Shown one piece after another: positions 5,784 to 47,400 of a stretch of DNA of 47,400 nucleotides; within the stretch, counting starts at the first letter, position 1, and each line of letters opens with the position of its first letter. Both the position numbers and the translations under genes were made by a program. The notes under the pieces were generated by a model. That model was given only the letters and a program-made list of their open reading frames with translations, ran no database searches and was not told where the DNA came from. Source of the DNA: a virus. Lineage: Duplodnaviria; Heunggongvirae; Uroviricota; Caudoviricetes. The stretch spans positions 64,001-111,400 of the IMG/VR virus record IMGVR_UViG_3300023238_000006; one strand, written 5' to 3'.

Positions 5784-5792
5784 CACCTATTC

Positions 5793-5841
5793 TTAGTTAA
5801 ACCTTAATTAATTTAACTAATGTATAATCGTAAGTTATAAT
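5793..5841 (+). promoter_or_regulatory. AT-rich sigma70-like promoter with a 9-bp inverted repeat
   Basis: TTAGTTAAA (5793-5801) / TTTAACTAA (5812-5820), TATAAT at 5823-5828 and 5836-5841, upstream of an AAGGA RBS. Confidence 0.5.
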
Positions 5842-5862
5842 TAACATAAGGAAAACTAATAT

Positions 5863-6078
5863 ATGGGTATAAGTAAAGAAGAGGCAGCCTTGCTACTACG
5901 TAGTAGCTGCGGCCCTACAAGAATGGAAATAGACATGTTAGAACGTAGTATCTCTAGAAAGAAAAAAGATATAACAGACCTGACTAGAGCTGTAATCTTA
6001 GAAGAAGGTTGTCTATTTGAGTTAAAGGCTGCCCATGGTGCAGCTATAGTACTAAGAGACAGGCTGAAGAATGTCTAG
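5863..6078 (+). CDS. Hypothetical coiled-coil protein
   Basis: 71-aa ORF with an AAGGA RBS, overlapping the helicase start. Confidence 0.65.
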   Translation: MGISKEEAALLLRSSCGPTRMEIDMLERSISRKKKDITDLTRAVILEEGCLFELKAAHGAAIVLRDRLKNV

Positions 6079-10500: not shown

Positions 10501-11649
10501 ACTAATCGTCTTAACATCTTTTCTAAAGGTGCCCATAACTGCATCTACAAGCATCATTACAGATGCCAGTAGACTGTCACCTAGTGTTACTATCTTCTTC
10601 TTCTCTTTTAGCTTTATAGTCTTTAACTTATTAAATACCTTCTCATTAGACAACGCCATAGCTAAGAATTCTTCAAGGCCATTCTCACTAGTCATATAAG
10701 CTAGTCTGCCCTCAGCTACCATCCTCTCTGCATCCTCATTCATAATAGAGTCACCCATCAAGTCATCCACTGTAAGTATGTCTAAAGCCTTACTACGTAG
10801 TTGTGTGAGAAGTCTTATTTCTTTAGTTAAGGCTATCTTGTTAGCATTTAGCCCATAGTGTGTTGCACCATGGATTAACTCATGCACAAAAATCTCTAAC
10901 ATACTCATATCAGTGCCTAAAGACCTTACGTCCCTACCGCTTTTTAAATATATACCTTTATCATCTTTGAACTCAATGAAACCACCATTAGAGTCTGCCT
11001 TATCATTCAAGTATATATTCATCTCTTGCATAGGCTTCTTAAGTCTACCAACAACATGGTTAAATACCATTAATAGATGCTTTGTATGAGACTCACTAGT
11101 CCCAATATTATCAATACTCTGGAGGGTATCTACCAACTTTTCAAGGGCAGCTACATTGCTAATCTCACTAGCCTTTATAACTACTTTACCTCTATCAGCC
11201 TTAGAGTTAACACCTGGTTGGTTACCTTCATTATCAGGCCTAGCACCTAATCTATCTGTCACACTATATTGTGCATCCATATTATCCATTACAATAGCAT
11301 GGGCGCCCATTAGGTAAGTCTTAACACCATTAGGGTACTTAACATTATAAGCTGCTCTACCATTAGCATCGATATAGCCATCCACTATAGTTAGCTTCAC
11401 ACCGGCAGCAGTAGTTGGATTGTTAGCCGCTGTATTCATCTTAGCAATAGTGCTAGCTGGTATTGTTGTAAACTGCTTCTCATATTTCTTAGTTATGTTT
11501 TTAAGGCGTACTTCATTAGTTAAATTAGCCTCTAAGTCATTTATATATTTAGAGGCTGCTTCAATATTACCGCCATTAGCTTCTAGTTCTAATAGGCTCT
11601 TCTTCTCATTAGCTATTGCTTCTTTACGTTGTTCTAAGGTACATACCAT
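7510..11649 (-). CDS. N4-like virion RNA polymerase C-terminal domain, encoded as a separate 1379-aa protein
   Basis: FVHELIHGAT...EEFLAMALSN and C-terminal AYSDFVAR...YVNY...YMNDMGLVAFSKYAIRIQ resemble the N4-type vRNAP C-terminal domain. Own AAGGA RBS. Single Cys, at residue 3. Confidence 0.75.
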   Translation of the reverse strand: MVCTLEQRKEAIANEKKSLLELEANGGNIEAASKYINDLEANLTNEVRLKNITKKYEKQFTTIPASTIAKMNTAANNPTTAAGVKLTIVDGYIDANGRAAYNVKYPNGVKTYLMGAHAIVMDNMDAQYSVTDRLGARPDNEGNQPGVNSKADRGKVVIKASEISNVAALEKLVDTLQSIDNIGTSESHTKHLLMVFNHVVGRLKKPMQEMNIYLNDKADSNGGFIEFKDDKGIYLKSGRDVRSLGTDMSMLEIFVHELIHGATHYGLNANKIALTKEIRLLTQLRSKALDILTVDDLMGDSIMNEDAERMVAEGRLAYMTSENGLEEFLAMALSNEKVFNKLKTIKLKEKKKIVTLGDSLLASVMMLVDAVMGTFRKDVKTISGDKLLMKLVSDIGSLNHKAARINDQTLRAKAGRQIDRAEERWKGWIDGLEGKNQEYILNKLAGKKKLTVIDKVRAIHFVLASEKGTPMMQGTLAMLGMREEGFIQSILRHVKHADKYGNKIQKLILAAQQIDTKRESEAANIAGVMNEAFGRKLRKEEKKALYGSAMLADNSTMLKAFSKDELKSIYNNMAILDKAIAGVEVRLSEKLSDSDSRYMLAQAKGLADLMMTGNSTVVQRKNATAIVSHVMKTTKPSADLITDVDLLTSLYATKTIPVATQHTIARLVGTNYDGMKFIAEAQSGFRAYILGVNPEESNNLMKNYHRETYDSGKGLEIAKTDAGTKRRMQLKGYKLTKDKVSSLGLGYGDSADMKLGLYVNHQLSQQPMNRASLRYTGDREPGMSLWQDALKRGMDSATYDVVQAQIKRAADLGLEYEEAVRAGKEPKVGTNVVPVVNAKNEITDYKTQVPYRRKIEYMGLEMDAPQAVARSWAHEADVEESKELNGIVWDTLMDDMIENAHSSGNVGKNQHRYVDISRLSDVNEVKDAVSILPENIRELMNTVRKANVMIKGLNNDLAGGADGAKLKGELSKFDLKNVMYNEGTDKFELGTDLMMKIIGDDKYAGLSETKRSKLKRIFGKNIFKVRRDMLLDIFGVRDASLANILPGHQMTKHLKKAIRMLEDAWKEIVKIFKVDVIIRTLPVIMGNMISNIMYSFQYGLSPLAVAKRQLEGVALLRDYLADTDALAKLIPKLAINPNDKVLQRKKLELEGNINKSAIKPLIDEGLYQHIIEDVNMSDVKSNSKISRYISDKTEGAPQLLKDIGNWTFVSEKTSLFKLVTTMTAYSDFVARYAQYTLGIEKEKQIYQTVNDRPMTANQEAQLAADMIIRVRDAYVNYSKPDSKILQYMNDMGLVAFSKYAIRIQLGIQDLIKGKPLRFGLAILGQEMFEMVSGYNPDDIGEVSVFARPIDKWVYSPGFSKIIGDIIEPQMITNINKAFG

Positions 11650-11662
11650 GTATTTCCTTTTT

Positions 11663-14600
11663 TTATTTACAGATGTCGGACTTTACTATAGTATCATCCA
11701 TAGCGCCTCTCTGGTTAGTATCTGTAATTATATCAGAATCATCATTATAAAGCGAATCTATATCAAAACCACTCATATCTATATCATCAAACGATGTTAC
11801 ATCTTTACCTAGTAGATCATTAGGGGTTTTAGCAGTAATGGGTTTAACTGTGTCATCACTTTTAGGAGTAGTAACTGGCTCTGCAGCAACATTAGCCCCG
11901 CCTGTAAGTAATAATTCTTTACCACGATACTTCGCTCCATGCTTTTTGTCAATAACAAATTGTTCAGCATTAAACATGTATGTTGCAAATTCAGCTCGAT
12001 CCTTTTGATTAACTTCATTCAACTCTGTTATAGACTGTAATGTAACTTGTGGAGATGCATAATCTTTCTCAACATCTTCTCTACTCTTATTAAACCTCTC
12101 CATCTCATTAACAACCTGGACCTCTTGCACATCATCCAGGATACCTGGGTACTGCGCCATAGCGGCTGTTAGTACACGCTCTAACCCGTTTCTAGCTGAT
12201 GAGATCTGAGACCATTCAGTATCCATATTAGTAGCTATAAAGTCTTGGTTAGCAGATGTTACAACATCACTCTGATTAACCCCTAACACGTATGCATCAA
12301 ATATCTGCAGTGCATTATGTTTAAGTGTAGTCATAGCTGTCCCTAGTCCATCAGTGAATTGTGTATACAACACCACCCCCTTAGCACTTGGACCAATTAA
12401 CTCTCTACGCTTACCCCTAACATACCTACCTTCTTTTCCTTTACGATAAATATGTGCATCACCATAAATGTTCTCTGCTGCCATTGCAGACTTAGTATCA
12501 TACAATGCAATACCATCTTCATACCCAACACTGCCAGGGCCTACAACTACAGGTGTAATCCCTTCAGCCTCTAACTCCGCTAATATCTCTAAATGTACCT
12601 CATTTGAAGGTGCACCACCTATACCACGTGTTGCAAGCTTTCTATCATACACAGCTTTGAATATATCAAACATACTACCAGTAGCCTCAATGATTGCAGT
12701 GTTCATAGCTTTTAAGCCTTCGAACTCTTTAGTCATCTCTTCCTGGATGGTATCACCATACACACCGCGAACTAATCCTCTAAAGCTCTCTAGTAGGTTT
12801 GTCTTACCACCACCATTATTAACGGTTATAGCTTTGTACGGTTTGCTCTTTAAATCAGTTCTAAACTTAGTTATAGCTGCATCACTCATTTCAATACCAA
12901 GAGCTGCTATAAGTGCATGCGCCTCAAGAGTGTCTTCATTCATAAGCTTGCTCATAATATCATCTATCAACTCAGCTGACAGGCCATTACTCATAGACTT
13001 AAACCCTGCTGCATAACCAAATGTCATAAATGCTGGCTTCATAAGATCTCTAGCAAAATCTACAAGGTCCCCATCTTCATCACGCATTGCAGGCATAAGG
13101 TCTGTAAGTGCCTTAGCCTTAGTTTTCATAACCTCTAAATCTGTAGAACCCCATCTATATACTCTAGCTTGCAGTATATACCCTGGAAGTTCATTCTTAT
13201 ATTTAGCATCTTCTATTGCAATCCTAGTTAATAGCTTGGACTCCATAGTAGCACCTACAGGGAACACACCTTCACCAAGAGTAAGATATGCATCTACTAT
13301 CCCTCCATCAGCTCCATTCTGTATATTAGTCACCATATCATTGGCTTCTTCTTGTGAAGAAAAAGTAAATCCAACTCTGTTCAACCATTCTAAAGTCTTT
13401 GGAGTGATACCTTCTCCTAGCTTATCAGTAGTTAGGAACTGTAGTAACTTATGGGCAAATCCATTAGTTAGTCCATCAATTTCAACAGTCATTACCGTAT
13501 CAAAAGGACTGCCATTAGCTTCTATGTATTTAGCACCCTCAACTAGGGCTGTAACGGTATGGGCCAACTCTTTTATTTTAATAGTAATATCACCTATAGT
13601 TGCAGAAGTCTCTCCAGCAGCTATAGCTTTTTCAAGGATAGCTAACCCCTCAGTGGTTAGGACTTTATCAGCAAACTCAACACTCTCCTTAGTGGTACGC
13701 TTGTCTATCTTAAAGCCTGTTGCTTGTGCCACACCCAACTTAAACATAACCATACTCATAGGGTCTTTAGTTACATCTACGGTACCTCGTTGCCCTTCAG
13801 TAGTAACTAAGTACCTGTGCAGCTTAATAGATTGAGGGTTAAATCCACCTTCAGCGTCTATCATCTGGCGACCAGACTTAGACATAAACCATCTAAAGAA
13901 TACTCCATCAGTCATTTCACCACTTCTATAAGCTTCTTGCATAGCTACTACATTTTCTATGTCCATCTCTATTTGACGATTCTTACCTATTATACTTATA
14001 GACTGCTCTTTAGTAAGTGTATCAGCTGTTTCATCAGCAGTGCCTAGTATCTTTCTAAGGCTCTCAGGTGTGATAGCTAATATTTTATCTATTACTTCAG
14101 TAGTAGGTTGCCATGATATCTGCTCACTCTTTATAATAGCATTGGTCTGAGTCTCTGGAACAGATGTTGTGCTTTCATTACGTTTCTTAATATCCTCAGG
14201 AGACTGAGTACGCCCCTCTAGGTGTACTTTAGTCTTACTACGAGGCTCAGCATTTAGCCTAATATCAATGTCCTTAACATGGTCTCTAAGTGCTGTCTTA
14301 GCCTCTAGTGATTCAAACATACCAGTTACCTTGTATGTATATGTAATCTCTTTAGAAGTCTCAACAGTAGTATCCACAAAGTCTGGATCATTTACCATAC
14401 CTTTAAATGGGCTAACATATGGGACTTCAACTTCTCTAATCATATTAGTATTCTGAGCATGGACTACAGCCGCATATCCTAGTGCTAGTGTTATCTTCTC
14501 GTAGAACTCTGTTGAGTCCTCCACAACATTCCCTTCCACATCCTTAGTTATAAGAGGTTTGATACCTAGCTTTTTCATGATATCTTTACCAACTGTGTCG

Positions 14601-17251
14601 ACTATAAACGTTGCAGGTACACCACCCTCTATAGCAGCTTCACTAAGCTCCATCCAGTTTTCTTCTGTCCTACCATACATCGCTTGTAGATCTTTAGCTG
14701 ATAACCTAGTAAGAGGGTAAAAGTTCTCGGCTATATAACTATTCATAGCTGCCTTCATTGCCATCGCTACATTAACATTTAAAGTACCATCACTATTAGT
14801 TAACACCATCAAATAAGGGTGACTGGCTTTGTCAGCATCAGAGACCTTGCCCATAAGAGGGTTACCTTTTGAATCAGACTTCTCTACACCATTAGCTGTA
14901 AGGTTTGCAGCTAAGAACTGTAACTCCCCTGGATTAAACATAAACTCTGTATCTTTAACGGTGTACTCTACAGCCCCTAAGTCAGAAGAAGGGTTACCAA
15001 CACTAAGTTGTGTGCCTAGTGTGAACCCTGTTCTACGAGTAGTCTTGTACCCTGGTTTACCAAGATTACCCTTATCCTCACTTTTAAAATATGCCTTGTT
15101 AGGGCTATACAGGGGACTAGTAGTACTATGCACAACAGCTAACACCTTCTTAGTCTGGGATGTACCCCTTTTAGCGTCCTGTGCTTTCTTAAGTTTCCTA
15201 GTAGTTAATCCTTTCTCAGCCAACTTGCCCAATACTTCAGACCTCTTACCCCTCCAATCAGGACCATACAGTTCTGCTGCAGCTTTTTCAGCCACATCTA
15301 TGGCATCATTAATAGCCACAACATTAGCCTGTCTAGTTGCTTGTTCATCTGTAAATGCCATCTTAGCTTTAACAGCTTTATTAAACAAGGCTTTAGCTTT
15401 AACTAACGCCTTAGTAAGAGTTACAAGTGCTGCTCCTACAAGCTTACGGTATCTACTAATAAAGCCTGCAGCAACTTCCAAAGCCTCTACGTTCTCTTTG
15501 ACTTTTCTAGCTGCTACTGTGTAGTTGTGCTTTTCACTACTATCAAATTCTATAGCTATAGCATCTTCGTTATAACCTTTTCTAGTATCTGAGCTGTTAT
15601 ACTCTTTAATTATATCTCTAACAGCTTTGTAACTTTTATCCACAGTAGCTATTACTGCGTCCCATCCTTTACTAAACTCTGCATTGTCAGCTCTAACGTT
15701 CTTACGGTCAACCTTTAGGGCTCGTATGGTATCAATAACAGCTTTAGTACCATCAAGGAACTTTGATACCCCATTAACATTCTCATCCATTGCAGCAATC
15801 TCATCAATGATATATGCTCTTCTACCTAGGAGCTTAGTTATTACTCTATCAAGGTTATCTCTTTGAGTCTTAGTTAAATCACTAGCTTTTACTACCTCAT
15901 GTACTTTTAACTGGATAGCCTTAGTTTTAGCAACAACTTGTAACTGTATATTATTAGTCTCTTTAGTAGTACCTATACTCTTACCTAGCTGTACTAGCAA
16001 CTCACTAAATGTAGCCACATCAGGTGAGAAGTTTAGGTACTCTTGAACATACGTAGAAACCGCCATCTCTCTAGGAGCTATTAGTTTCATATCTTCAGCA
16101 AGTGGGGGTGCATAAGGATTATTCTTAGTAGGCACTTCGTACTCAGCCTCCACAGGAGCCTCTACAACCTCTTCCTCAACACCTTCTACCTCTTCAACCA
16201 CTTCGTTCGTTGTAGCCTCTGTGAGGGTGTCTGACGGAGGTGTTTGCTCAGTTGGTTTATATTCAGTTGTTGCATCTTCTACAACTACTTCCTCAGCCTT
16301 CGTAGAAGCCTTAACAACCTCTCTAGCCACTGTAGTATCAGTTGTAGGAGTTTGTGGCTCTACAGCCTTCTCAGATACCTTCTCGCTCTTGTTAACTTCA
16401 TCTAATATCTTCAAGTTGGAGTCTAATAGAATATCGAACAATGTGCCTAATTCTTTGCCTTTAAACCCTAGCATCTGAAGTACAGTATTTAGAAGTATTT
16501 GTGCCATATCGTATAACCTATCCACAGGGTTAGTGGGTTTGACACTCATAAGTGCCAACATTACCTCAGGATTACTTAAAGCTTCTGCAAGGAATTCATG
16601 CACATCACCCTGCCAATATGTATCAGCTATATCAAACTTATCTTTATTTTCTAGCATATACTTGTAGATCATACTAATTCTTCTAGTAGCAGGTTCATTA
16701 GGGTTAATAATCATATACTCAGAGGACCCTGAATGAATTAACTCATGGAGTAGAAAGTGTGAGCCTTTAGTCTTACGTATAATGTCAAACACTCTTTCTA
16801 CTTCCACATCTAGCAAATCAGTGGTATCTGTAGCATTTAGAACTTTCAAGGCCTTGGCTACTGGTAGCATAGTGGTTAACTGGCTATACATATCCTTAGA
16901 TAGCTCTGCCTTTATTTCCACTTTGTTAACGTAGCTGGCTATAGTAATAGCTCCGCCAGGTATAAGTGTTTCACCAGCAGCAAACTTATTTATACCTATT
17001 CTTATCTGGGACAATGCAAATGCTTTATCCTTCGAGATAGAAGGATTAACAATACTAAATATTGCTCTACCAAGCCCTTTACCAAACATCTTTAAAGATG
17101 TGTTACTAGGTGGAGTGTTATAAGTGTTTGTTACAAACTCCCCAAACTCCTCCTCCAGTGTTGCACCATCCTGTATTATTTTATTAATAGCTCTACTAGC
17201 TTGAGGGTACTTACTTAGCTCTTTAATAGCTTCTTTTAGTTGGCATGGCAT
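11663..17251 (-). CDS. N4-like virion RNA polymerase, catalytic piece (1862 aa)
   Basis: Single-subunit RNAP motifs: A VEIDGLTNG (about 13460-13485), B RDLMKPAFMTFGY (about 13014-13052), C LQIFDAY (about 12290-12310), plus FNPQSIKLHRYLV. Position matches the N4 gp50 locus. Confidence 0.9.
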   Translation of the reverse strand: MPCQLKEAIKELSKYPQASRAINKIIQDGATLEEEFGEFVTNTYNTPPSNTSLKMFGKGLGRAIFSIVNPSISKDKAFALSQIRIGINKFAAGETLIPGGAITIASYVNKVEIKAELSKDMYSQLTTMLPVAKALKVLNATDTTDLLDVEVERVFDIIRKTKGSHFLLHELIHSGSSEYMIINPNEPATRRISMIYKYMLENKDKFDIADTYWQGDVHEFLAEALSNPEVMLALMSVKPTNPVDRLYDMAQILLNTVLQMLGFKGKELGTLFDILLDSNLKILDEVNKSEKVSEKAVEPQTPTTDTTVAREVVKASTKAEEVVVEDATTEYKPTEQTPPSDTLTEATTNEVVEEVEGVEEEVVEAPVEAEYEVPTKNNPYAPPLAEDMKLIAPREMAVSTYVQEYLNFSPDVATFSELLVQLGKSIGTTKETNNIQLQVVAKTKAIQLKVHEVVKASDLTKTQRDNLDRVITKLLGRRAYIIDEIAAMDENVNGVSKFLDGTKAVIDTIRALKVDRKNVRADNAEFSKGWDAVIATVDKSYKAVRDIIKEYNSSDTRKGYNEDAIAIEFDSSEKHNYTVAARKVKENVEALEVAAGFISRYRKLVGAALVTLTKALVKAKALFNKAVKAKMAFTDEQATRQANVVAINDAIDVAEKAAAELYGPDWRGKRSEVLGKLAEKGLTTRKLKKAQDAKRGTSQTKKVLAVVHSTTSPLYSPNKAYFKSEDKGNLGKPGYKTTRRTGFTLGTQLSVGNPSSDLGAVEYTVKDTEFMFNPGELQFLAANLTANGVEKSDSKGNPLMGKVSDADKASHPYLMVLTNSDGTLNVNVAMAMKAAMNSYIAENFYPLTRLSAKDLQAMYGRTEENWMELSEAAIEGGVPATFIVDTVGKDIMKKLGIKPLITKDVEGNVVEDSTEFYEKITLALGYAAVVHAQNTNMIREVEVPYVSPFKGMVNDPDFVDTTVETSKEITYTYKVTGMFESLEAKTALRDHVKDIDIRLNAEPRSKTKVHLEGRTQSPEDIKKRNESTTSVPETQTNAIIKSEQISWQPTTEVIDKILAITPESLRKILGTADETADTLTKEQSISIIGKNRQIEMDIENVVAMQEAYRSGEMTDGVFFRWFMSKSGRQMIDAEGGFNPQSIKLHRYLVTTEGQRGTVDVTKDPMSMVMFKLGVAQATGFKIDKRTTKESVEFADKVLTTEGLAILEKAIAAGETSATIGDITIKIKELAHTVTALVEGAKYIEANGSPFDTVMTVEIDGLTNGFAHKLLQFLTTDKLGEGITPKTLEWLNRVGFTFSSQEEANDMVTNIQNGADGGIVDAYLTLGEGVFPVGATMESKLLTRIAIEDAKYKNELPGYILQARVYRWGSTDLEVMKTKAKALTDLMPAMRDEDGDLVDFARDLMKPAFMTFGYAAGFKSMSNGLSAELIDDIMSKLMNEDTLEAHALIAALGIEMSDAAITKFRTDLKSKPYKAITVNNGGGKTNLLESFRGLVRGVYGDTIQEEMTKEFEGLKAMNTAIIEATGSMFDIFKAVYDRKLATRGIGGAPSNEVHLEILAELEAEGITPVVVGPGSVGYEDGIALYDTKSAMAAENIYGDAHIYRKGKEGRYVRGKRRELIGPSAKGVVLYTQFTDGLGTAMTTLKHNALQIFDAYVLGVNQSDVVTSANQDFIATNMDTEWSQISSARNGLERVLTAAMAQYPGILDDVQEVQVVNEMERFNKSREDVEKDYASPQVTLQSITELNEVNQKDRAEFATYMFNAEQFVIDKKHGAKYRGKELLLTGGANVAAEPVTTPKSDDTVKPITAKTPNDLLGKDVTSFDDIDMSGFDIDSLYNDDSDIITDTNQRGAMDDTIVKSDICK

Positions 17252-17865
17252 TATGCAGCTCCTTTAAGGTTACATCGTTCGTTCTCAACTAGTGGTATTA
17301 ACCAAGCTGATACATTTATAGAAGAGGCGGTAAGATGGTTAGCTCCTTTAGAAGTTAGTGCATTAACAACATCTAACCCCCCATCTTTCTTGATTATAGC
17401 TAGCTCTGTCTCAACCATAACAGGATTTAAGGCCTCAAGTTTAGAGTAGTTACGCTTAAAGTTATATCTTATCAAAATGTACTCAGCTTCTATATTTGAA
17501 TATCTATCGGGGATATCTATATCATTACATATATCAAAATGTTTACAGCTGTATGGATGGTATCTCTCCATTATTAAATTACGCATAAACTCTAAGTATG
17601 CCTCTTCACATAATGAATCAGCCTTAGTAGCAGGTATTTGTGTGCTACCTGACAATCCCATATACTCTATATAAGTTTCTGTTAGATGCTGTACATCTTT
17701 AAACAGTATACTGGTATCTAGCCCTGAGTAAATCTTATGGTAGTTAACACCACCTTCAGTAATAAGGCCTACAGGGTTCTCTCTTAACCCTCCTTGACCA
17801 TCTTGCTTACAATAGTACATAAGGTACTTACTAAACTCTTCACCAGTATTTGTGGTATTACACAT
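17251..17865 (-). CDS. Unknown 204-aa Cys-containing protein inside the split vRNAP locus
   Basis: Coupled by TAATG overlaps on both sides; Cys at 2, 19, 86, 107, 113 and 198. Confidence 0.75.
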   Translation of the reverse strand: MCNTTNTGEEFSKYLMYYCKQDGQGGLRENPVGLITEGGVNYHKIYSGLDTSILFKDVQHLTETYIEYMGLSGSTQIPATKADSLCEEAYLEFMRNLIMERYHPYSCKHFDICNDIDIPDRYSNIEAEYILIRYNFKRNYSKLEALNPVMVETELAIIKKDGGLDVVNALTSKGANHLTASSINVSAWLIPLVENERCNLKGAA

Positions 17866-20800
17866 TAACAGTCCTTTAAATCTATACCTGCCTCTTTAAG
17901 TTTCTTCATAAGTGAAGGTGCAGAGGTTATATATTGAAGCAGTGCTTCTCTAGTTCCGACATTATACTTAGATTCTGGATCTTGTGCAACGCTGCGAATC
18001 TCTAGGGCTCTATCTATAGGCTTGGCAGTATTACCCAGCCCCTTTAGACCAGCACCGTCAGTCTCATCTAATCCTTCTAGTATATCTGCCTTAGGTTTCT
18101 TAGTAGGGCTATTCTTAGGAGACTTCTTAGTAGCCGCTGGTAACGTCTCTACACTACTATCTGTAATACCCTTTACAGCTACCGTAACAGACTTTTGATT
18201 AGCCTCATCAATCATGAACTCACGCTCCGATGGCTCTAGCTCTACACCCGTAACTTGCTTCTGTGCAATTATAGTAACTATAGCTGGTGCACCTTTGGTA
18301 GTATCACCAGTTACTTCCTCAGCTGCTCCTGAAGCCTTTATATTCAACTTAGGAATACTTACCGGCTCAGCCTCTGTCTGTGCCTCCTGGGTACCTTGCT
18401 GTGATTCTCCTGACACTTCTGATCGTATGTTATTCTTATTAATCAACTGACTAGCTTTAATCATAGCTTGTACTTCTCTACCAGTAGCAGCTATCATTAC
18501 GTTAGTCTTAGAACCTTCTTTCCAAGTGGATGTGAGCCCCTCGGATGCCGCCTTATTCCAAGGCAAATCCTGAGCGTAATCAATCAATGACCCTTCTGAA
18601 TTTACATCAAAATTACCAGCATCTCTTACAAACTCAGAGTTAACTCTCATATACTCTTTAGAAGCATACTGGATACTATGTGATCCACCCGCTATAGATA
18701 ACTGAGCAACAGTCTTACCAGTTGCTGCCATAACTTGTGCAAGCTCATTGTCAAAGCTATTAGTTTTAGCTAAGTTAAACTTACCAGTACTACTAGCCTT
18801 CACTAGTGCCTTCCATACTACCTCTTCTGATAATCCTGTAGTGGATACTAATGTATTAATCTTATTAGCAATGGGCTCTATTGCAGCAGTTCTACCAGCA
18901 ATTAGCTTCTGGTGCTTCTCTTCCTGTAAGGATGTGAAAGCTATTAACTTATCTGACGAAGCCTTACGCTCTATAGATCCTTTAGAACTGCCCAGTGCAT
19001 CCCTGAAATAACTCATAAAGCCTTTCTTATCAGCACTCATACCAGATGTTACAATCTGCTCTCTAGTTATATCCATACCACCCATAGTCTTTATATGTGC
19101 TCTAATCTCTTTAAGACTTTTAACTATTCTAGGAATGTCTTTATCAATCACCTCACCACTTTCATCTAAGTTATTGGCAATAAGGTTATCTGTAAAAGTA
19201 TCAGCTTGTGTATCATTATCTAAAGCTATTCTAGAGAAAGCTACACGCATAGCTTCTTCAGCTTCAGGTGTGGCACCCAGCCTAGAACTATCCCCAGTCT
19301 CTATAGCCTTATTAGCTAAGTTAGTTTGGTGTATCCTAGTAGCGTTCATAAAGTCATCTTGCCACTCTTGCGTCTTAGTTGCTAATACCTCTCTAGGAGA
19401 TACTACAGCACCACCTCTAGCCTTAGATACTTCTGCAACTTCCTGTAGTAGTTCGTTCTTCTGTGCTTCGAATATAGCAGCAGCATCTTCGTCAGATGTT
19501 GCGTTGTTTATGGTATCTGTGAAAGTTGTTTGTTTAATTGGTGTGGTTGTGTTAGCCGCTATATCTTCTTGTTCTGCTTTGAGGGCTGATAGCTTAGCTG
19601 ATAATTGGTCTGTAGCGGATACAACAGACCCGTTGTTAATAATAGCTGAAGCAGCGTCTTTAGCAATACTAGTACCTGAACCAGCCCCTGCCCCCATAAG
19701 CCCGGCAATGGCTAAGTCTTGTATAGCATCTTCTGACGTTATCTCATCTTGTTTACTGGTACCAAGTTTAGCACCAACAAGTTGTGATCCATCCTGGATT
19801 ATCTCTTCTAGCCCTTCCTCAAAACCTTTAGTTACAGCATTAGCCCCTACTACTAAGAAAGACTTAGTAACCGTGTTCCATGCAGCTCTGTCCATAAGTT
19901 GTGCAGCCTGTAAAACTAACTCTTTAGTTGGTTTTAAACCAGCCATACCACCAGTGAACTTATTAACTAGCGCATACACAGTACCCGCTGCCAACCCTAT
20001 ACCATAATCAGAAGCCTCTAGCTCAGTAGTGCCTTTTATAGCAGCTCTCTCTGCAAGAACCTCATTCATAGCTTTACCAGCTAATGCTGCAACACCTAGA
20101 GGGTTTGATGCAGCTAGTATCTCTCCAGAACTGCCTGCTAGTACCTCAGGTGCTTGTACAATAGCTTCCAATGCTACAAGGACCTTATCCTGCCAAGATG
20201 CATTGTCATCAAACAATATCTTCTTAGCTTTCTTAGTATAAGCCTCAACACGTTTAGGATCGTAGCCATAATACTTAGCAGTCTTAAATTTATCAAACCC
20301 TACGAAGTCTCCATCTTTAGTCACTAGATCCTCAAACATTGTACCTTTAAGTTTACGTTGCAGCTTCTTATTGTAGTAGTCTTCATCCTTACCTTCGATA
20401 CCTTTAGCAGCTTCTTTACCCAGCCTAATACCAGCATCTACTATCCAGTCACCAGTACCTGCAGCGAAGGCTCCAACACCTTTCTGTGCAGCATCTACTA
20501 AGTTACCTAAGTAGCTATCAGTGTCTTCACCACCGCCAGACAATAGCATATCCAGCTTTGCATTCCGTACAGGTGAGTAACCTCCATTATACCTAGCATT
20601 ATCTGTAACAGCTTGTTGCCTATTACTAAACATAACCTCTTCTCTACCATCCCCAGTAGTACCATCTTCTTTTGTGTACAAACCACCCATAGTCTCTAAT
20701 AGACCAAGATCTCTACCGTAGTTAGATATGTGTGTCTTACCATCTTTAGTTTTAAAAGTACGGCTATCGTTGTTAGTTAGGAGTGTTTCCTGTAGAAGGG

Positions 20801-21287
20801 ATGGTAAGGGGTCTTGTGTGTAGGCCTTAGCTTCTGCTTTCTGTGCATCACCTGCTGCAAATACATCACTATAGTCTACTTGTCTGCCCATCTCTGCTGA
20901 TAGTTTAACAACTTGCTCATCCATCTTCTTAACCATATTAGGGTTCTTAATCCATTCAGAGTAGTTAGGCTTAGAGGACTCATAAGTATCAACGCCAAGG
21001 GTACGTGTACTGTCTTCACGCCCTTCAACACCATATGTATCACCATCTATGGAGTATATTGAGTTACTTGAAATAGCACTAGTAACAGGTGCATCAAACC
21101 CTGGCTGCGATAATCCCGCATTAAGACCTAGCCTGCCTTCTTTAGAGGTAATACGCTCTTGAAGTCTTGACGCTTTATTATCTGAAAGTGTAGGGGATTG
21201 AGGTGTGGTAGGTAATATGGCAGCACCATATATAATTTTGTTTAACTCATCTAGTCGGGTATCAAAGTTGTTGTATTGTCCTAGCAT
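17865..21287 (-). CDS. Probable vRNAP N-terminal (ejection) domain, encoded as a separate 1140-aa protein
   Basis: Lies between the gp51-like gene and the polymerase piece. Gly/Ala-rich segments (KGFEEGLEEIIQDG...LAIAGLMGAGAGSG) are typical of N4-type vRNAP N-termini and ejection proteins. Single Cys, as the last residue. Confidence 0.7.
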   Translation of the reverse strand: MLGQYNNFDTRLDELNKIIYGAAILPTTPQSPTLSDNKASRLQERITSKEGRLGLNAGLSQPGFDAPVTSAISSNSIYSIDGDTYGVEGREDSTRTLGVDTYESSKPNYSEWIKNPNMVKKMDEQVVKLSAEMGRQVDYSDVFAAGDAQKAEAKAYTQDPLPSLLQETLLTNNDSRTFKTKDGKTHISNYGRDLGLLETMGGLYTKEDGTTGDGREEVMFSNRQQAVTDNARYNGGYSPVRNAKLDMLLSGGGEDTDSYLGNLVDAAQKGVGAFAAGTGDWIVDAGIRLGKEAAKGIEGKDEDYYNKKLQRKLKGTMFEDLVTKDGDFVGFDKFKTAKYYGYDPKRVEAYTKKAKKILFDDNASWQDKVLVALEAIVQAPEVLAGSSGEILAASNPLGVAALAGKAMNEVLAERAAIKGTTELEASDYGIGLAAGTVYALVNKFTGGMAGLKPTKELVLQAAQLMDRAAWNTVTKSFLVVGANAVTKGFEEGLEEIIQDGSQLVGAKLGTSKQDEITSEDAIQDLAIAGLMGAGAGSGTSIAKDAASAIINNGSVVSATDQLSAKLSALKAEQEDIAANTTTPIKQTTFTDTINNATSDEDAAAIFEAQKNELLQEVAEVSKARGGAVVSPREVLATKTQEWQDDFMNATRIHQTNLANKAIETGDSSRLGATPEAEEAMRVAFSRIALDNDTQADTFTDNLIANNLDESGEVIDKDIPRIVKSLKEIRAHIKTMGGMDITREQIVTSGMSADKKGFMSYFRDALGSSKGSIERKASSDKLIAFTSLQEEKHQKLIAGRTAAIEPIANKINTLVSTTGLSEEVVWKALVKASSTGKFNLAKTNSFDNELAQVMAATGKTVAQLSIAGGSHSIQYASKEYMRVNSEFVRDAGNFDVNSEGSLIDYAQDLPWNKAASEGLTSTWKEGSKTNVMIAATGREVQAMIKASQLINKNNIRSEVSGESQQGTQEAQTEAEPVSIPKLNIKASGAAEEVTGDTTKGAPAIVTIIAQKQVTGVELEPSEREFMIDEANQKSVTVAVKGITDSSVETLPAATKKSPKNSPTKKPKADILEGLDETDGAGLKGLGNTAKPIDRALEIRSVAQDPESKYNVGTREALLQYITSAPSLMKKLKEAGIDLKDC

Positions 21288-41494: not shown

Positions 41495-41903
41495 AGGCAG
41501 GGACTCCTCCAAGGTAGTCAGCATCTGTTGGTACTGCCACTAATGTGATTAAATCATAGTTATAAACAATCACTGCCTTGTACCAATCTAATATCTTAGT
41601 AGCTTCTACACCAAATGTAGCATCACCTTCCCATAGCTTAACTGTAGCCATACTATCGTAATCTAGTTCTTTTAGTTTGTCTGCTATTACTTTTAGATAT
41701 AGCTGTTTGAAGTGAGCTATCGTAGCTTCTTGCGTACGCTTATCAAACTCAGCTTTTTGCTCAACTAAAGCCACATCAACAACACTCTGTGTAACTACAG
41801 CCTTATCATCAAGATAAACATAGTCATTCCCTGACATAACAACCTCTCTATTAAGTTGTTTTGTAAGTACATCTACTAATGGTGTTTGTGTTATTTCATT
41901 CAT
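41487..41903 (-). CDS. Tail-fibre assembly chaperone-like protein
   Basis: IADKLKELDYDSMATVKLW...EATKILDWYKAV pattern typical of fibre chaperones; downstream of a fibre gene. Confidence 0.6.
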   Translation of the reverse strand: MNEITQTPLVDVLTKQLNREVVMSGNDYVYLDDKAVVTQSVVDVALVEQKAEFDKRTQEATIAHFKQLYLKVIADKLKELDYDSMATVKLWEGDATFGVEATKILDWYKAVIVYNYDLITLVAVPTDADYLGGVPAYV

Positions 41904-42361
41904 TTGTTTACCTTATATAAAATTTCTGCATTCATTCTAGCATCTACTGCTTCTGAAAACTTAGTAAATCTACCAAGATTTATTCTCTTGCCATCTATAG
42001 ATATTGAAGCTCTCCATCTATTACTTGTAAAAGATACACCTTTACATCCTGATGTATTACTATCAAATAGTTTTCTATTGTGGTTATTTTCAGATGACGT
42101 TACAGCTCTTAGGTTATCAATAGCATTGTTATTTCTATCTCTATCTCGATGGTCTATCTCAAATAATGGAAACTCTTCATTTTCATATAACCAAGCTAGC
42201 CTGTGCGCTCCGTACTCTTTACCATCTATGCCTATAGATACATAGCCATTATTTGACCTACCAGCTACAGAGCCTATCTCGTATCCTCCAGAGTTAGTTA
42301 GTCTTGTAAACTCTCCTGACGCTTTATTGTATGAATACATTTCTTTTAATTTTGCTAACAT
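41900..42361 (-). CDS. HNH homing endonuclease with a C-terminal AP2 DNA-binding domain
   Basis: AHRLAW...EIDHRDRDRNNNAIDNLRAVTSSENNHN; SGCKGVSF...WRASISIDGKRINLGRF. Confidence 0.92.
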   Translation of the reverse strand: MLAKLKEMYSYNKASGEFTRLTNSGGYEIGSVAGRSNNGYVSIGIDGKEYGAHRLAWLYENEEFPLFEIDHRDRDRNNNAIDNLRAVTSSENNHNRKLFDSNTSGCKGVSFTSNRWRASISIDGKRINLGRFTKFSEAVDARMNAEILYKVNK

Positions 42362-43860
42362 TATTGCACCTCTAAATGGTCACACGAAAATCTTGAACCA
42401 ATCAGCCAACTCGAATTCCAAACATAGTTGCCCCAATTCGAGGCACGAGAACCCGCATTGACACCATCACTACGATGCGCGCCCAATAGCACCGCTGTAG
42501 GAGAGTTGGGTGTAGAATAAATCCGACCTCTTTGGTCTGCATTATCAGTCCAAGCGAAAGCAGTAGTTCCATAACCATTCATCAAGTCTTTACCCCAAAC
42601 CCATTGAACACCCGAAGCTTGTTCTATACCAAACTTAGAAGTAAGGTTCGAGTAGTGCTCTACTTTTCCAGCAACCGTTTCATAACCATTTGTTGAAGAA
42701 GATTTACCCTCATTCACACCATAAGCAATAGTTGGAAATTCAGCATAATCAATAAGTTCTTTAGAGTGTGACTTTGCAATTTCACAAAGTTGAAACCAAG
42801 TTAATTTCCCATAAGTAAGAGTTCCATTTCCACCATAAGCTAAAGGTATTTTAGGAATAGCACGACCATAAGATGTTGCACCAGCTGCAATAGTTGCACC
42901 TGCCTTAGACGTTCCATTTGTAATGTGTTCAGAGTTAAGTAAGTAAATGTCATACCACTTAGAACCAATAAATACCATTCCCTCAGGCTCACAAACAGGT
43001 CTAAACCACTTAGTCCAAATAGAGTAAGCGTTTATACCTCGTATAAGAACCATATCCGCTTCTGTTTTGTTACCAGTTGGAGCTTCTGCTTCTGCTGTTA
43101 AACCATAATGAAAACCACCAATAGTATTCGCATCTTTAACAGTTTGAATAGCTGTCTTAGAGAAATAATAATCAGTTCCCGCAGTAGGAGTTACTAAGCT
43201 CATTAAAGTACCATCAACTGTAATAGAAGATGGACTTGTTTTTGTTGGTCTTAGGATACTGCTAGATTTGTTAGCCAAAACAAAAGCAGTAGTAGCACCT
43301 TTAGTACTATTATCGCCTAGTGCTGGAGTAGGCATTACTGGGCTTGAAGAGAAAGTCTTTACACCTGCTATTGTTTGAGTTGTTGTTAGGTTAACGAAAG
43401 CACTGTCTGTCTCAGTCTTAGTATAAGTAGTGCTCTGAGGCGCTTTTAGTGCAATATCAGCATCTTGTGCTGTATCTATAGCCAACTGTACTGCTGTAGT
43501 ATTATGATCTGCACTGCTAAATACTCCATTAGCCACTATCTCAACTATATCACCACTTGTAGCACCAACTGTTAATACTACATTAACTCCATCAGTACTT
43601 GCGAAGTTAACACCATTAACTAGCTTATATCCATTATGATGTACTACTAGTAATCCTGGTGAGTAGCTAAGAACCTTACCTAGTCTATCTGCACCTGTAA
43701 ATGTAGTCTGACTTGCTGTAGCTACATATGAGTACTCGTTCTGTATAGTACCTACACTGGACTTGAGTATCTCCCAACCTACTGCTGCTCTATACTGATA
43801 TGTTATCTCGTTTGCTATATGTGTATCACCGTCTGTTGGTGATGCTGGGAATGTAAACAT
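42361..43860 (-). CDS. Tail fibre 2 with a C-terminal CLec/FGE-type (DGR-target-like) domain
   Basis: N-terminal fibre anchor; QTIAGVKTFSSSP...ATTAFV fibre repeat; PEGMVFIG...WYDIYLL; ends LLGAHRSDGVNAGSRASNWGNYVWNSSWLIGSRFSCDH. Confidence 0.8.
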   Translation of the reverse strand: MFTFPASPTDGDTHIANEITYQYRAAVGWEILKSSVGTIQNEYSYVATASQTTFTGADRLGKVLSYSPGLLVVHHNGYKLVNGVNFASTDGVNVVLTVGATSGDIVEIVANGVFSSADHNTTAVQLAIDTAQDADIALKAPQSTTYTKTETDSAFVNLTTTQTIAGVKTFSSSPVMPTPALGDNSTKGATTAFVLANKSSSILRPTKTSPSSITVDGTLMSLVTPTAGTDYYFSKTAIQTVKDANTIGGFHYGLTAEAEAPTGNKTEADMVLIRGINAYSIWTKWFRPVCEPEGMVFIGSKWYDIYLLNSEHITNGTSKAGATIAAGATSYGRAIPKIPLAYGGNGTLTYGKLTWFQLCEIAKSHSKELIDYAEFPTIAYGVNEGKSSSTNGYETVAGKVEHYSNLTSKFGIEQASGVQWVWGKDLMNGYGTTAFAWTDNADQRGRIYSTPNSPTAVLLGAHRSDGVNAGSRASNWGNYVWNSSWLIGSRFSCDHLEVQ

Positions 43861-44327
43861 TAGTTAGTTCCTATTGATTTAGTTGTTGCATATACTTGCA
43901 GCGAGGTTGCGTGTGCCTGCTTTAGTTCATCTAGCGTTACTACTACTTCACTCTTATCAGCTAATCTCCAAGTAGTGCTTACTACCCCAAGGTACTCACT
44001 CGCTAGTATGCTGTCAGCCATGTTCTGTCTAGACTCTAGGTTTGCATCAAACACTAATGTAGTTAGGTCAGCTCTTGTAACTACTACTGTTAGCTTTGTG
44101 AGTTTATCCACTATAGCAACTTTACTTTCAGCAGCCATTTGCTTAACCATCATGCTTCTAGCTACCTCAACACTAGTGTTGAAGCTACCTTCATTATACG
44201 TGTACAGTAACTCTCCATCTTCCTTAGTACTGCTTACTACGTTATAGCAGATAGTGACTACACCCCCTTTTACCACTTCACTTAGGGGCAACTCATGTGA
44301 TTGCACACCGTACTTGTATTCTACCAT
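43860..44327 (-). CDS. DUF4376-like tail-fibre assembly protein
   Basis: VFDANLESRQNM...TTWRLADKSEVVVTLDELKQA. Confidence 0.7.
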   Translation of the reverse strand: MVEYKYGVQSHELPLSEVVKGGVVTICYNVVSSTKEDGELLYTYNEGSFNTSVEVARSMMVKQMAAESKVAIVDKLTKLTVVVTRADLTTLVFDANLESRQNMADSILASEYLGVVSTTWRLADKSEVVVTLDELKQAHATSLQVYATTKSIGTN

Positions 44328-45319
44328 TGGTAACTCCTTAATTTATTTTTATCACTTATACTTAATGTAGCTCTGGTAATAACATCCAACCATAGCCCTC
44401 TAGCCTCTACTGCCTTCATCCATCCAAAGTAACTAGCTGCTGACTGTATGCCACGTGTAGCAGCTAGTGCCTTGAACATACTAACCTTAATGCTTTTACG
44501 AATTCTAACATATTTCTTTGTAAATACAAACCCTACAAAGTCAATACCTCTCTTAGTTATATCAAACACTTGGTAGTCTTTCTTTACAACTAGTGATATA
44601 CTTCCGAGGTAGCTCCGTACTTCGCTAAGCACTGCATGTAGATGCTGTTTACCCTTATGAATAAACACGATATCATCACAATACCTAAAGTAGTGGTTAA
44701 TCTTATACTTCTCTTTCATTAAATGGTCTAGCTCACTAAGCGCTAAGTTGCCTAGATACTGGCTGATGTAGTTACCTATTGGCAGCCCATCAATACTTTC
44801 TATTATAGTATCTAGCAACCATAAGGTATCTTTGCATTTAATCTTCTTCCTAACTACTACTTTAAGTACATCATTCTTTATAGATGGATAAAACTTCTGT
44901 ACATCTAACTTCAGGCAGTACCTAGACTCTGGATCCATTACTGCGCTATGTACCCTGTCTTTTGCCCTATGTACCCCTCTGCCTTTGATACTTTGAAATG
45001 TATCAGCTATTAAAGTCCTCTTCCAGATTGGCTCCAATACTTGCATTATAGCATGATGGATTATTCTATCAGGGAAATAAGGCAACTTGTAAATAACTCT
45101 TATTTTACCTTTATCATTCTTCTCAAATACATCGTACCCACCATTAACAAATGTCTTCTTCTCAAGCATAGCCTGTATCATGCCACAGTACTTGTCCAGA
45201 TCATCATCAACCATTTTAACTTCTGTGTAGTGTGCTTTGCCCTTTCTAGCATTCTTGTGTGCTAGCTTTATATTATCTATATCGTGTATCTTTTCGAAGA
45301 GGTATCCATACCGTTTCAT
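44321..45319 (-). CDS. DGR reverse transcriptase
   Basis: PYFPDRIIHHA, KLDVQKFYPSI, GLPIGNYISQYLGN (DGR-type SQ), YFRYCDD, GIDFVGF; 332 aa with no maturase or endonuclease domain. Confidence 0.95.
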   Translation of the reverse strand: MKRYGYLFEKIHDIDNIKLAHKNARKGKAHYTEVKMVDDDLDKYCGMIQAMLEKKTFVNGGYDVFEKNDKGKIRVIYKLPYFPDRIIHHAIMQVLEPIWKRTLIADTFQSIKGRGVHRAKDRVHSAVMDPESRYCLKLDVQKFYPSIKNDVLKVVVRKKIKCKDTLWLLDTIIESIDGLPIGNYISQYLGNLALSELDHLMKEKYKINHYFRYCDDIVFIHKGKQHLHAVLSEVRSYLGSISLVVKKDYQVFDITKRGIDFVGFVFTKKYVRIRKSIKVSMFKALAATRGIQSAASYFGWMKAVEARGLWLDVITRATLSISDKNKLRSYQW

Positions 45320-45429
45320 ATCTTGTTCCTTTGAGCGTTCGAGAATTAACCTACCAGCACAATTTTGTTACATTATTTTTCACAACTGTTGGTGTGGGCA
45401 AGAAACTCGCTATTTGTTTCTTCAAGATT

Positions 45430-45525
45430 TCTGGAGCTGACATTCACATTAGATAAAGCTGAATCATTATTCACATTCAGATTCAGTGGTCTAGTATTCA
45501 AACCATTATTCGAATTACTACCTAC
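45430..45525 (-). ncRNA. DGR template repeat (TR), 96-nt core
   Basis: AAT-rich (reads VGSNSNNGLNTRPLNLNVNNDSALSNVNVSSR). Aligns without gaps to 45613-45708 with 24 mismatches at A and 1 at a non-A base. Confidence 0.93.
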
Positions 45526-45561
45526 CAGAGTATGCTCTTCTCGCCCAAGTACTTTATTTAG

Positions 45562-45579
45562 CCTCGTGAACCTACGAGG
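45562..45579 (-). promoter_or_regulatory. DGR target-recognition-type hairpin downstream of VR
   Basis: CCTCGT-(6 nt)-ACGAGG stem about 20 nt after the target stop codon. Confidence 0.7.
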
Positions 45580-45600
45580 TGTAAATTGCTAATTATACCG

Positions 45601-47079
45601 TCAACAAGAAGGTCCGGAGCCGACAGCCACAGTAGATACAGCCGAATCACTACCCACAGCCAGACTCAGCGGCCCAGCACCCAAACCAGTAGCCGAAGTA
45701 CCACCCACCACAGCAATTCTATTACCAACTGCTTGATAGTAATAATCCGTAGTACCTACAGCACTTGTACCTCCTGTTACATCAGTAGGAAAGAATCCCT
45801 TACTACTATTAGATAACTTTCTAGTATACCCATTAGCTGCGCCCATTGTTACACCAGCACTTACGTAATCACCTGTAAACACATCACTAGCAAATGTTGC
45901 CGGATTCTGACTAACAAATGGTACACGCTCCTGTATATTAATTCCATCAATAAACCCCCATATATTCCCAAAGAAGTTTTCACACCCTCTGTAGCTCATA
46001 AATGACAAGTCAGCGGATGCAGTATCAGCACTGCCAGCATATGTATAATTACCAGTCTTGTTTCCTAAGTTATTACTAAGTCCATTGATACCAATTAAAC
46101 TGCCACCTACCCACGCACCTCCAGTCAATGCAGTTCTGCCTTGCCCAAGTGCACTTTGTATATTCATCGTACCATACTCTATTATACATAACAACGTAAG
46201 CGCCTCATACAGCAGCCAATCTATCTGGTGCCATCCAGTGCCATTAGCCGCAGCTTCTGTCCTACCAGTAGCTATGGTAAATGACACACTAGGGTAAGTT
46301 CCACTTACACTCAGGAGCTTACCACCAGACCTAGTACCTTTGTATGCTGGGAAGTACCTAAAGTCTTTCTCTACTCCACCAATTACAAATGCAGGGTCAA
46401 GTATATACCCAGTCTCTGCTGTCAAACTAATACTATGCTCATGCACAACTCCAACAGCAGTATTATAGCTATACTTTCTGTAGAACTTTGGTATCTCTAC
46501 CATTACATTACCATCAGCACCTGTCAGTATAGAGGGTGTACCATCAGCCTTCTTGGTTGAATCAAGTGGGTCTAAGTAGTAGTTTACACTTCTATCAGCG
46601 TTTAGTACACATCTACGTATAAGTGATTGAATTGCAGTATACCCACCAGTGCCAGTTCTCTTATAGGTATCATTAGTTTCATCCCAGTTTAACCCATATG
46701 AGCCAGTATAAAAATCGCTACCTAGTTTTATAGCTGTGTTAACGTAAGTCTCTGATGCCAGCCCAAGTACGGCAGCAGCTACATTACTATCACTCTCTGT
46801 CTTAGTATAAGTAGTACTCTGGGTAGCCTTCAAAGCTAAAGCAGTATCCACTTCACCCTCACTATACATCTTCTTAGTAGTAGTACCAGCAGTTGGTACT
46901 TCTGCGTACACTCCACCAGTTACTACCATCTCTCTAGACGTATCAGTGTTTAACCACTTATCACCATCAAATAGCTTAGTAATGTCTGGCTTGTTAGCCT
47001 CAGTAGTTATTAAGTACTGTCCTTTTGTCTTAGCTATCTTCTCTGCTTTTAACGCTGCACCTAGTGAAATTATATCCAT
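45601..47079 (-). CDS. Tail fibre 1 / receptor-binding protein, DGR target (CLec fold)
   Basis: GNVMVEIPKFY...GWHQIDW...IIEYGTMNIQ...SYRGCENFFGNIWGFIDG; the VR occupies its C-terminus. Confidence 0.88.
   Translation of the reverse strand: MDIISLGAALKAEKIAKTKGQYLITTEANKPDITKLFDGDKWLNTDTSREMVVTGGVYAEVPTAGTTTKKMYSEGEVDTALALKATQSTTYTKTESDSNVAAAVLGLASETYVNTAIKLGSDFYTGSYGLNWDETNDTYKRTGTGGYTAIQSLIRRCVLNADRSVNYYLDPLDSTKKADGTPSILTGADGNVMVEIPKFYRKYSYNTAVGVVHEHSISLTAETGYILDPAFVIGGVEKDFRYFPAYKGTRSGGKLLSVSGTYPSVSFTIATGRTEAAANGTGWHQIDWLLYEALTLLCIIEYGTMNIQSALGQGRTALTGGAWVGGSLIGINGLSNNLGNKTGNYTYAGSADTASADLSFMSYRGCENFFGNIWGFIDGINIQERVPFVSQNPATFASDVFTGDYVSAGVTMGAANGYTRKLSNSSKGFFPTDVTGGTSAVGTTDYYYQAVGNRIAVVGGTSATGLGAGPLSLAVGSDSAVSTVAVGSGPSC
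45613..45708 (-). repeat. DGR variable repeat (VR) at the 3' end of tail fibre 1
   Basis: A-to-N derivative of TR 45430-45525. Confidence 0.93.
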
Positions 47080-47105
47080 ATTAGTATTCCTTATTATATA
47101 TCATA

Positions 47106-47399
47106 TTACAGCTCTACGTAGCTAGCTGCTGCTAGATTACCTGCAACGTAAGATAGTGTAGTTGATGCACTCTCTGTCACTGTACTACCTTTGTTGTAGT
47201 AATGCTTAACTAAATCCATTCCATCAACTCCATACGACAGCACATCTCTATAGTATATTGTAGTATTGTCATCACCTGTGTATCTAACAACTGTGAGGTT
47301 AGAATTGACATCATACTCTGTAGCTATTATATCTAAAGAACCAAGTATCTTATCATACCTCTTAATAGCTCCTGCTGTACCAAGTGCTCTATCTATATC
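47106..47399 (-). CDS. Partial structural protein (C-terminal 97 aa; start lies beyond the window)
   Basis: Open frame from the window edge: DIDRALGTAG...LSYVAGNLAAASYVEL, stop at 47106-47108. Confidence 0.65.
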   Translation of the reverse strand, partial: DIDRALGTAGAIKRYDKILGSLDIIATEYDVNSNLTVVRYTGDDNTTIYYRDVLSYGVDGMDLVKHYYNKGSTVTESASTTLSYVAGNLAAASYVEL

Positions 47400-47400
47400 G

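Follow-up and report, generated by a model that had tools for sequence, protein, structure and literature searches.

The DGR (diversity-generating retroelement) of Bordetella needs the accessory protein Avd, and a survey of 372 DGRs found an avd gene in 74% of them and none in the other 26% (Wu et al. 2018, PMC5758913). In the same survey, architecture A, in which a template repeat (TR) is followed by the reverse transcriptase (RT) gene with no accessory gene, accounted for 29%, and RT lineage 3 was without avd as a rule. The avd genes were poorly conserved and Avd was basic and helical, whole genomes of avd-less DGRs were searched and no remote avd was found, and Avd-independent homing was proposed. 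From crAssphage LMMB, Morozova et al. 2020 (PMC7290462) reported a cassette of the order target gene, variable repeat (VR), TR and RT without avd and assigned its RT to lineage 3; of 91 related genomes and genome fragments, 15 contained the same cassette. DGRs of uncultivated N4-like genomes have also been tabulated (Zheng et al. 2023, PMC10654107). Here, a DGR without a recognisable avd gene is described from an N4-like phage in the IMG/VR record IMGVR_UViG_3300023238_000006. The window analysed is the last 47.4 kb of this linear 111.4-kb record, which was estimated to be 94% complete.

Overall, the locus is most probably an intact avd-less DGR of architecture A1 with a lineage 3 RT, located in the tail module of a distant and probably virulent N4-like phage of approximately 111 kb, and with no Avd-type protein involved. 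The initial annotation had placed a target gene, a VR, a hairpin, a TR and an RT gene in this region, and all of them were found in place on the minus strand (Table 1). The DGR is genuine, compact and intact-looking. The VR makes up the final ~35 codons of the 492-aa target and ends 10 nt before the stop codon. Target residues 228-400 matched PDB 5vf4 (E = 4.9e-5), which we take to be a DGR variable protein, and homologues of the target are the VR-bearing targets at 30 related loci. Comparison of TR and VR over 106 nt showed 30 mismatches, 28 of which were on TR adenines and 2 elsewhere (hypergeometric P = 3e-16), so that only 2 of the 70 non-adenine positions differed. The changes at adenine sites were 19 to G, 8 to C and 1 to T, and the TR read in the frame of the target had no stop codon. 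The adenine-biased mismatches and the AAT-rich copy in the gap are the TR/VR signature of a DGR. No second VR matching the TR was found within the 47.4-kb window.

The gap between target and RT is 281 nt long. Its coding strand holds only a 42-aa frame with a TTG start, partly within the TR, and the opposite strand holds frames of 65-76 aa, which leaves no space for an Avd-sized gene on either strand, as had been claimed. The hairpin in the gap starts 22 nt past the target stop codon. Post-VR hairpins were present in many relatives at varying distances from the VR, and by analogy the hairpin here may act like the post-VR hairpin of BPP-1. The RT, which is the sole RT in the 111.4-kb record, matched Pfam RVT_1 (E = 1.3e-17) and phrog_1423 (E = 5.9e-95), and both the DGR-type motif PIGNYxSQ and the motif YCDD were intact.

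The absence of a recognisable avd gene, proposed for the cassette, extended to the entire 111.4-kb record. Over the whole record, no candidate emerged at E ≤ 10 with the profiles PF05635, TIGR02436 and PF22296. A custom bAvd profile, made from 34 proteins that the Avd of one distant relative had served to gather, was also run as an unfiltered hmmsearch on all six-frame open stretches of at least 40 aa. The best E value in the record was 0.31, whereas the positive controls L040-L042 gave 1e-47 to 2e-53 with this profile.

The comparison set consisted of 42 viral contigs encoding RT relatives with 33-54% identity (loci with the prefix L). The nearest RT relative (L002, 54% identity) comes from a record of ~113 kb with a weak match to virion RNA polymerase. 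Among the 40 related records that were searchable, the 36 with an RT at least 37% identical had no Avd, and three with an RT of 33-34% identity carry bAvd between target and TR. The records without Avd included near-complete ones (G001, 90%; G019, 94%; G025, 100% complete). Nearly all avd-less relatives showed the same layout of VR, 40-125 nt, TR, ~90-135 nt and RT, and an adenine-specific TR/VR pair was recovered in nearly all of them.

In the maximum-likelihood tree, the window RT was placed in an 11-member clade (support 100/98) together with 10 avd-less RTs, including Yersinia phage fEV-1 and environmental contigs. Placing the RT in a tree had been proposed as a check, and it put the RT on the same side as the avd-less crAssphage LMMB, which is the single lineage 3 reference in the tree. 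This split (support 96/93) joined the window clade with LMMB and left the BPP-1 bRT and the Avd-bearing L040 and L041 opposite. The window RT shared 40% identity with the LMMB RT over 99% of its length, and the GenBank annotation of both LMMB and fEV-1 gives the order fibre, gap and RT. Judged from these sequences, the missing Avd is a property of the RT clade and normal for it.

The second proposed check, adenine-specific VR variation, was seen in relatives. L009 and L010 had identical TRs and differed at 9 of 1500 nt upstream of the VR, and 14 of their 15 VR differences were on TR adenines. L011 and L012 showed no differences in the 1500 nt upstream and their VRs differed at 19 TR-adenine and 4 other positions. 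For the compared pairs among L017, L020, L021 and L025, 11-18 VR differences were on TR adenines and none elsewhere. The avd-less class is thus diversifying in nature, since near-identical relatives with the same TR differ in the VR almost only at TR adenines. The window's own copy may likewise be active at present. At another locus of the set, L005, one TR (5748-5886) matched two VRs (5494-5630 and 1321-1459), the second of which lies ~4 kb upstream, and this locus is a two-target DGR.

The interval between TR and RT is ~106 nt long, and its hairpin, A-rich linker and stem around GGUAG...CGAA are conserved across the clade. When the spacers were aligned, GTA and GAA blocks stood out as conserved. 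From MAFFT alignments, RNAalifold retrieved the first hairpin alone, and the second stem was seen in single-sequence folds of the L031-L039 group. The spacers of L011, L017, L018, L019 and L023 passed the gathering score of the RT-17 motif (43-52 bits), and the spacer of the Avd-bearing L040 was RT-9 rather than RT-17. A sister motif, RT-10, lies between the TR and brt of BPP-1 and a role in priming was suggested for it (Weinberg 2017).

The phage was identified as N4-like in the initial annotation, and this was borne out by a split N4-type virion RNA polymerase on the minus strand (window positions 7510-21287). The family phrog_2206 (N4 virion RNA polymerase) was found on two adjacent ORFs (open reading frames) of 1862 and 1379 aa with E values of 8.7e-122 and 5.4e-62; the 1862-aa piece is the polymerase core and the 1379-aa piece the C-terminal domain. 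In a tblastn search, the latter showed 21-23% identity over ~84% of its length to virion RNA polymerases of Schitoviridae, among them the one of Alteromonas phage A5. Searches of the record for tyrosine and serine recombinases (integrases or resolvases) gave no match. On this protein evidence, distant N4-like is a fair description and the phage is probably virulent. Other RT relatives were found in phages of 36-55 kb without a virion RNA polymerase, so that this type of cassette moves between phage groups.

The closest described case is the cassette of crAssphage LMMB. Both share the gene order, a VR at the 3' end of a fibre gene of ~490 aa, a TR in a short non-coding gap, an RT directly after the gap and the lack of avd. 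Neither host phage has an integrase, by search for the window and by general background on crAss-like phages for LMMB. Phages of the crAss-like group are generally regarded as virulent. In contrast to LMMB, the host of the window's cassette is an N4-like podovirus with a split virion RNA polymerase and not a crAss-like phage, its RT falls in a sister sub-clade with fEV-1 and marine or environmental contigs, and its ORF behind the RT is of the DUF4376 type. The cassette also shares with BPP-1 an adenine-specific flow from TR to VR that rewrites the C-terminal tip of a tail protein serving in receptor binding, a hairpin after the VR, a structured spacer between TR and RT, and an RT of similar size (332 vs 328 aa). 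Unlike BPP-1 (mtd-avd-TR-brt), it has no avd between target and TR, where the 281-nt gap compares with an avd gene of 387 nt. Its RT lies across the tree split, its spacer is RT-17-like and not RT-10, and the phage is without an integrase whereas BPP-1 is temperate. Finally, subfamily SF8 of Zheng et al. 2023 (PMC10654107) also holds DGRs inside N4-like genomes from IMG/VR-type data; however, an integrase accompanies the DGR in those four genomes, which were interpreted as lysogenic, whereas the window record has no tyrosine or serine recombinase.

An avd-less DGR had been implied to be rare, and this was not supported. Avd was also missing from the 36 relatives, the class had already been published (Wu 2018, Morozova 2020), and N4-like genomes with DGRs had been listed by Zheng et al. 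2023 (PMC10654107). The element is not exceptional, because the avd-less class, a crAss-like case and N4-like DGRs were all in print before.

In the proposed mechanism, TR and 3' spacer would be transcribed as a single RNA. The spacer would fold in an RT-17-like manner, recruit the RT of 332 aa and, if the Bordetella element is a guide, provide the site of priming. The RT would then copy the TR to cDNA with misincorporation opposite adenines, and the cDNA would replace the 3'-terminal VR of the 492-aa fibre gene, by which up to ~17 codons of the receptor-binding tip could be re-randomised. No Avd-type four-helix-bundle protein would take part, and the RT would act with the RNA alone or with some factor unlike Avd.

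Several points weigh against this account. To our knowledge, all biochemically characterised DGRs need Avd and DGR biochemistry rests on the Bordetella enzyme, so that protein-free action is an extrapolation. The premise of the initial annotation that characterised DGRs need Avd was correct, with the Bordetella case given by Wu et al. 2018 (PMC5758913). The 42 loci were retrieved by exact peptide patterns of the window RT and are a biased sample of its relatives; an apparently invariant KKIKCKDT block in the RT alignment is an artefact for the same reason. The window spacer scored 18.1 bits against the Rfam model RF03020 (RT-17), with E values of 0.29-0.96 and the full model covered, and because this falls below the gathering score of 40.4 the spacer is called RT-17-like and is not a formal RT-17 member. 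No near-identical contig for a VR comparison was found: megablast of positions 42000-47400 against the phage collection gave no match, and the exact 23-nt TR pattern gave 0 matches in viral contigs and 0 in metagenome contigs. An accessory gene may lie in the host or in the unsequenced ~6% of the phage genome, the cassette being ~320 nt from the end of the linear record, and with Avd proteins being poorly conserved, a very divergent copy could elude profile searches.

The last two points lead to the alternative that a protein cofactor, Avd or an equivalent, is needed and is encoded elsewhere, either in the ~6% of phage sequence that the record lacks or by the chromosome of the host. It is favoured by the end of the record soon after the target gene, by the poor conservation of avd genes (Wu 2018, PMC5758913) and by a small protein that many relatives carry in the avd slot or behind the RT. 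This protein, phrog_19665, is 100-120 aa long and basic (pI 8.5-9.2), has no Pfam match and was found in 23 of the 42 related loci: in the avd slot at 12, directly behind the RT at 7, behind phrog_11557 (described below) at 2, and as a 51-aa stub at 2. Phages of gut Bacteroidales carry it very commonly (561 cluster hits). The predicted model shows a small OB-like barrel that weakly resembles domains of the SSB/RPA type (Z 3.4-5.2). The protein is a plausible candidate for a non-Avd DGR accessory. Some members of the clade therefore keep a candidate nucleic-acid-binding partner. The 'Avd' marked in the figure of the hankyphage paper may be of the phrog_19665 family. However, no trace of phrog_19665 was found in any of the six frames of this genome, and L009 and L010 diversify without its gene. 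The three curated Avd profiles and the unfiltered custom profile likewise found nothing in 111.4 kb, the near-complete related records G001, G019 and G025 are also without Avd, and the whole-genome searches of avd-less DGRs by Wu et al. 2018 (PMC5758913) found no remote avd. A cofactor encoded elsewhere is thus considered unlikely.

It is equally improbable that the cassette is a recently inactivated relic, whose VR was written by past activity and whose homing has since been lost. The 2 non-adenine mismatches between TR and VR, the weak match of the spacer RNA to its family model and an adjacent Mtd homologue that already is without any template would fit such a history. Against it, the RT frame and catalytic motifs are intact, the TR retains 36 adenines, its AAT-rich codon design and a frame free of stops, just 2 of 70 non-adenine positions differ, and relatives arranged in the same way are clearly active.

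The ORF behind the RT, of 155 aa, had been described as DUF4376-like and was confirmed as such through its homologues. Against DUF4376 (PF14301), the ORF itself reached only 22.2 bits where 25 is the cut-off, but PF14301 was present in homologues that share 54-55% identity with it. A profile of this ORF and four relatives gave 1454 cluster representatives, and one homologue sits after a tail-fibre gene in a phage stretch without an RT. The AF2 model (pLDDT 90.8) comprised a beta-hairpin domain, a long helix and a beta-beta-alpha-beta-beta-alpha domain; as modelled, the protein is not a four-helix bundle, and Foldseek with this model gave no match in the PDB at E ≤ 0.001. The pI of 5.0 compares with 9.5 for the Avd of L040. 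A complex prediction of the RT with this ORF scored 0.00 and gave no verdict, which is evidence neither way. Experiments have established two DUF4376 proteins, gp27 of Alteromonas phage V22 and gp9 of the N4-like phage A5, as chaperones of fibres (PMC7289586, PMC10579305). The window ORF has in common with them a C-terminal DUF4376 domain and a place downstream of the fibre gene, and A5 is an N4-like schitovirus with one of the virion RNA polymerases that best match the one in the window. It differs in that TR and RT intervene between the fibre gene and the putative chaperone gene, in its Pfam score below the gathering cut-off, and in that its chaperone role is one that we infer. The ORF is probably the assembly chaperone of the fibre and probably not a DGR component.

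In almost every relative, an ORF of 100-150 aa starts at the RT stop. In 25 related loci this place is taken by phrog_11557, an acidic protein (pI ~4.6) of mostly 100-135 aa that starts at or overlaps the RT stop codon, and the DUF4376 type was found behind the RT in only 2 of the 42 loci (L008 and L029). In size, charge and context, phrog_11557 resembles CH1, an accessory of 160-169 aa with a pI of 4.7 found in avd-less DGRs only (Wu et al. 2018, PMC5758913). That all ORFs behind the RT form one family was considered and rejected: the idea had rested on weak BLAST links from L029 to L002 or L007, and it was dropped because the profile-profile probability between the DUF4376 type and phrog_11557 was only 3.6%. 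No small ORF family was common to all avd-less loci, and the core common to the avd-less relatives is target, TR, RT-17-like spacer RNA and RT. Among the alternatives raised in the initial annotation, namely an Avd-independent DGR, a distant or host factor, or the use of RNA or the downstream ORF, the downstream ORF is the weakest. That the 155-aa ORF is a functional Avd replacement and a new kind of DGR accessory is very improbable, for although its 7-nt overlap couples it to the RT, its position is filled by a small ORF in nearly all relatives and it is small and acidic like CH1, it belongs to a large family whose characterised members are tail-fibre chaperones and which also occurs after a fibre gene away from any RT, other loci have phrog_11557 or phrog_19665 instead, homology with phrog_11557 is unsupported, and Avd is basic and helical whereas this ORF is acidic and of mixed beta and alpha structure.

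The avd-less reading in its general form can be taken one step further, as a tentative proposal that is possible but less than probable: RTs of this lineage would make adenine-mutagenised, self-primed cDNA and home it without a protein cofactor, with the RT-17-type spacer RNA as a scaffold in the way that Avd is one in Bordetella, and with phrog_19665 as an optional booster in some sub-clades.

Other genes of the fibre module were also inspected. Two genes past the RT, at 42361-43860 (-), lies a 499-aa tail protein that is a true homologue of BPP-1 Mtd, with 34% identity across 345 aa (E = 6e-45). The resemblance reaches the C-terminal ...GSRxSCDHLxxx end, which is the VR/IMH region in BPP-1, and homologues of this protein are DGR targets in the relatives L032 and L033. 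No cognate template for it was found anywhere in the 111-kb record, and the gene may have become an orphan or fossil among DGR targets beside a DGR of another type. The next gene, immediately behind the Mtd homologue and at the margin of the fibre module, encodes an HNH_3 endonuclease (41900-42361, -; E = 1.2e-13) whose tail is weakly AP2-like. Directly upstream of the target, an ORF at 47106-47399 (-) is cut off by the end of the record, and the tail module therefore extends past the sequenced DNA. This ORF was judged by eye to be beta-rich and not Avd-like.

Table 1. Coordinates of the DGR parts in the window and of small ORFs in related loci
Feature	Position	Strand	Basis or remarks
DGR target gene, 492-aa tail protein	45601..47079	-	ORF call; match to phrog_5302 'tail protein', E = 5.7e-74
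VR	45611..45716	-	3' end of target gene; gapless 106-nt alignment to TR
Hairpin, 6-bp stem CCTCGT/ACGAGG, 6-nt loop	45562..45579	-	sequence and fold of the post-VR stretch
TR, non-coding	45428..45533	-	36 adenines; 10 AAT codons in the frame of the target
Structured spacer RNA, RT-17-like	45323..45399	-	hairpin, A-rich linker, stem around GGUAG...CGAA
DGR reverse transcriptase, 332 aa, intact	44321..45319	-	matches to RVT_1 and phrog_1423; motifs; tree
155-aa acidic ORF, DUF4376-family	43860..44327	-	7-nt overlap with RT stop; pI 5.0
phrog_11557, examples	L011:7004-7405, L002:7045-7353, L009:3097-3408		also in 22 other loci
phrog_19665 in avd slot, examples	L011:5384-5734, L017:5364-5723, L027:5349-5717
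phrog_19665 behind RT, examples	L034:7023-7331, L037:7337-7648

The avd-less class was already known and DGRs of N4-like phages had been noted before, though not in detail; what this locus adds is a clean minimal avd-less DGR in a large, distant N4-like phage of marine type without an integrase. The class is of more interest than this copy. How about a quarter of all DGRs work free of Avd has been a question since 2018. In the literature searched, Wu et al. alone raise it and alone use the term 'Avd-independent', and no experiments on an avd-less DGR were found there. The comparative set narrows the question, as target, TR, RT-17-like spacer RNA and RT are the only parts common to the avd-less relatives. 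The main value of the element is as a compact test object for an Avd-independent mechanism, and a two-part system of RT and RNA would make targeted mutagenesis simpler than it is with the present three-part systems. If no cofactor is needed, the TR-spacer-RT unit of ~1.3 kb would be a self-sufficient portable diversifier, able to sit between the fibre and chaperone genes of unrelated phages (N4-like, crAss-like and siphoviruses). Overall, the finding supports the view that virulent phages too re-aim their fibres by means of a DGR.

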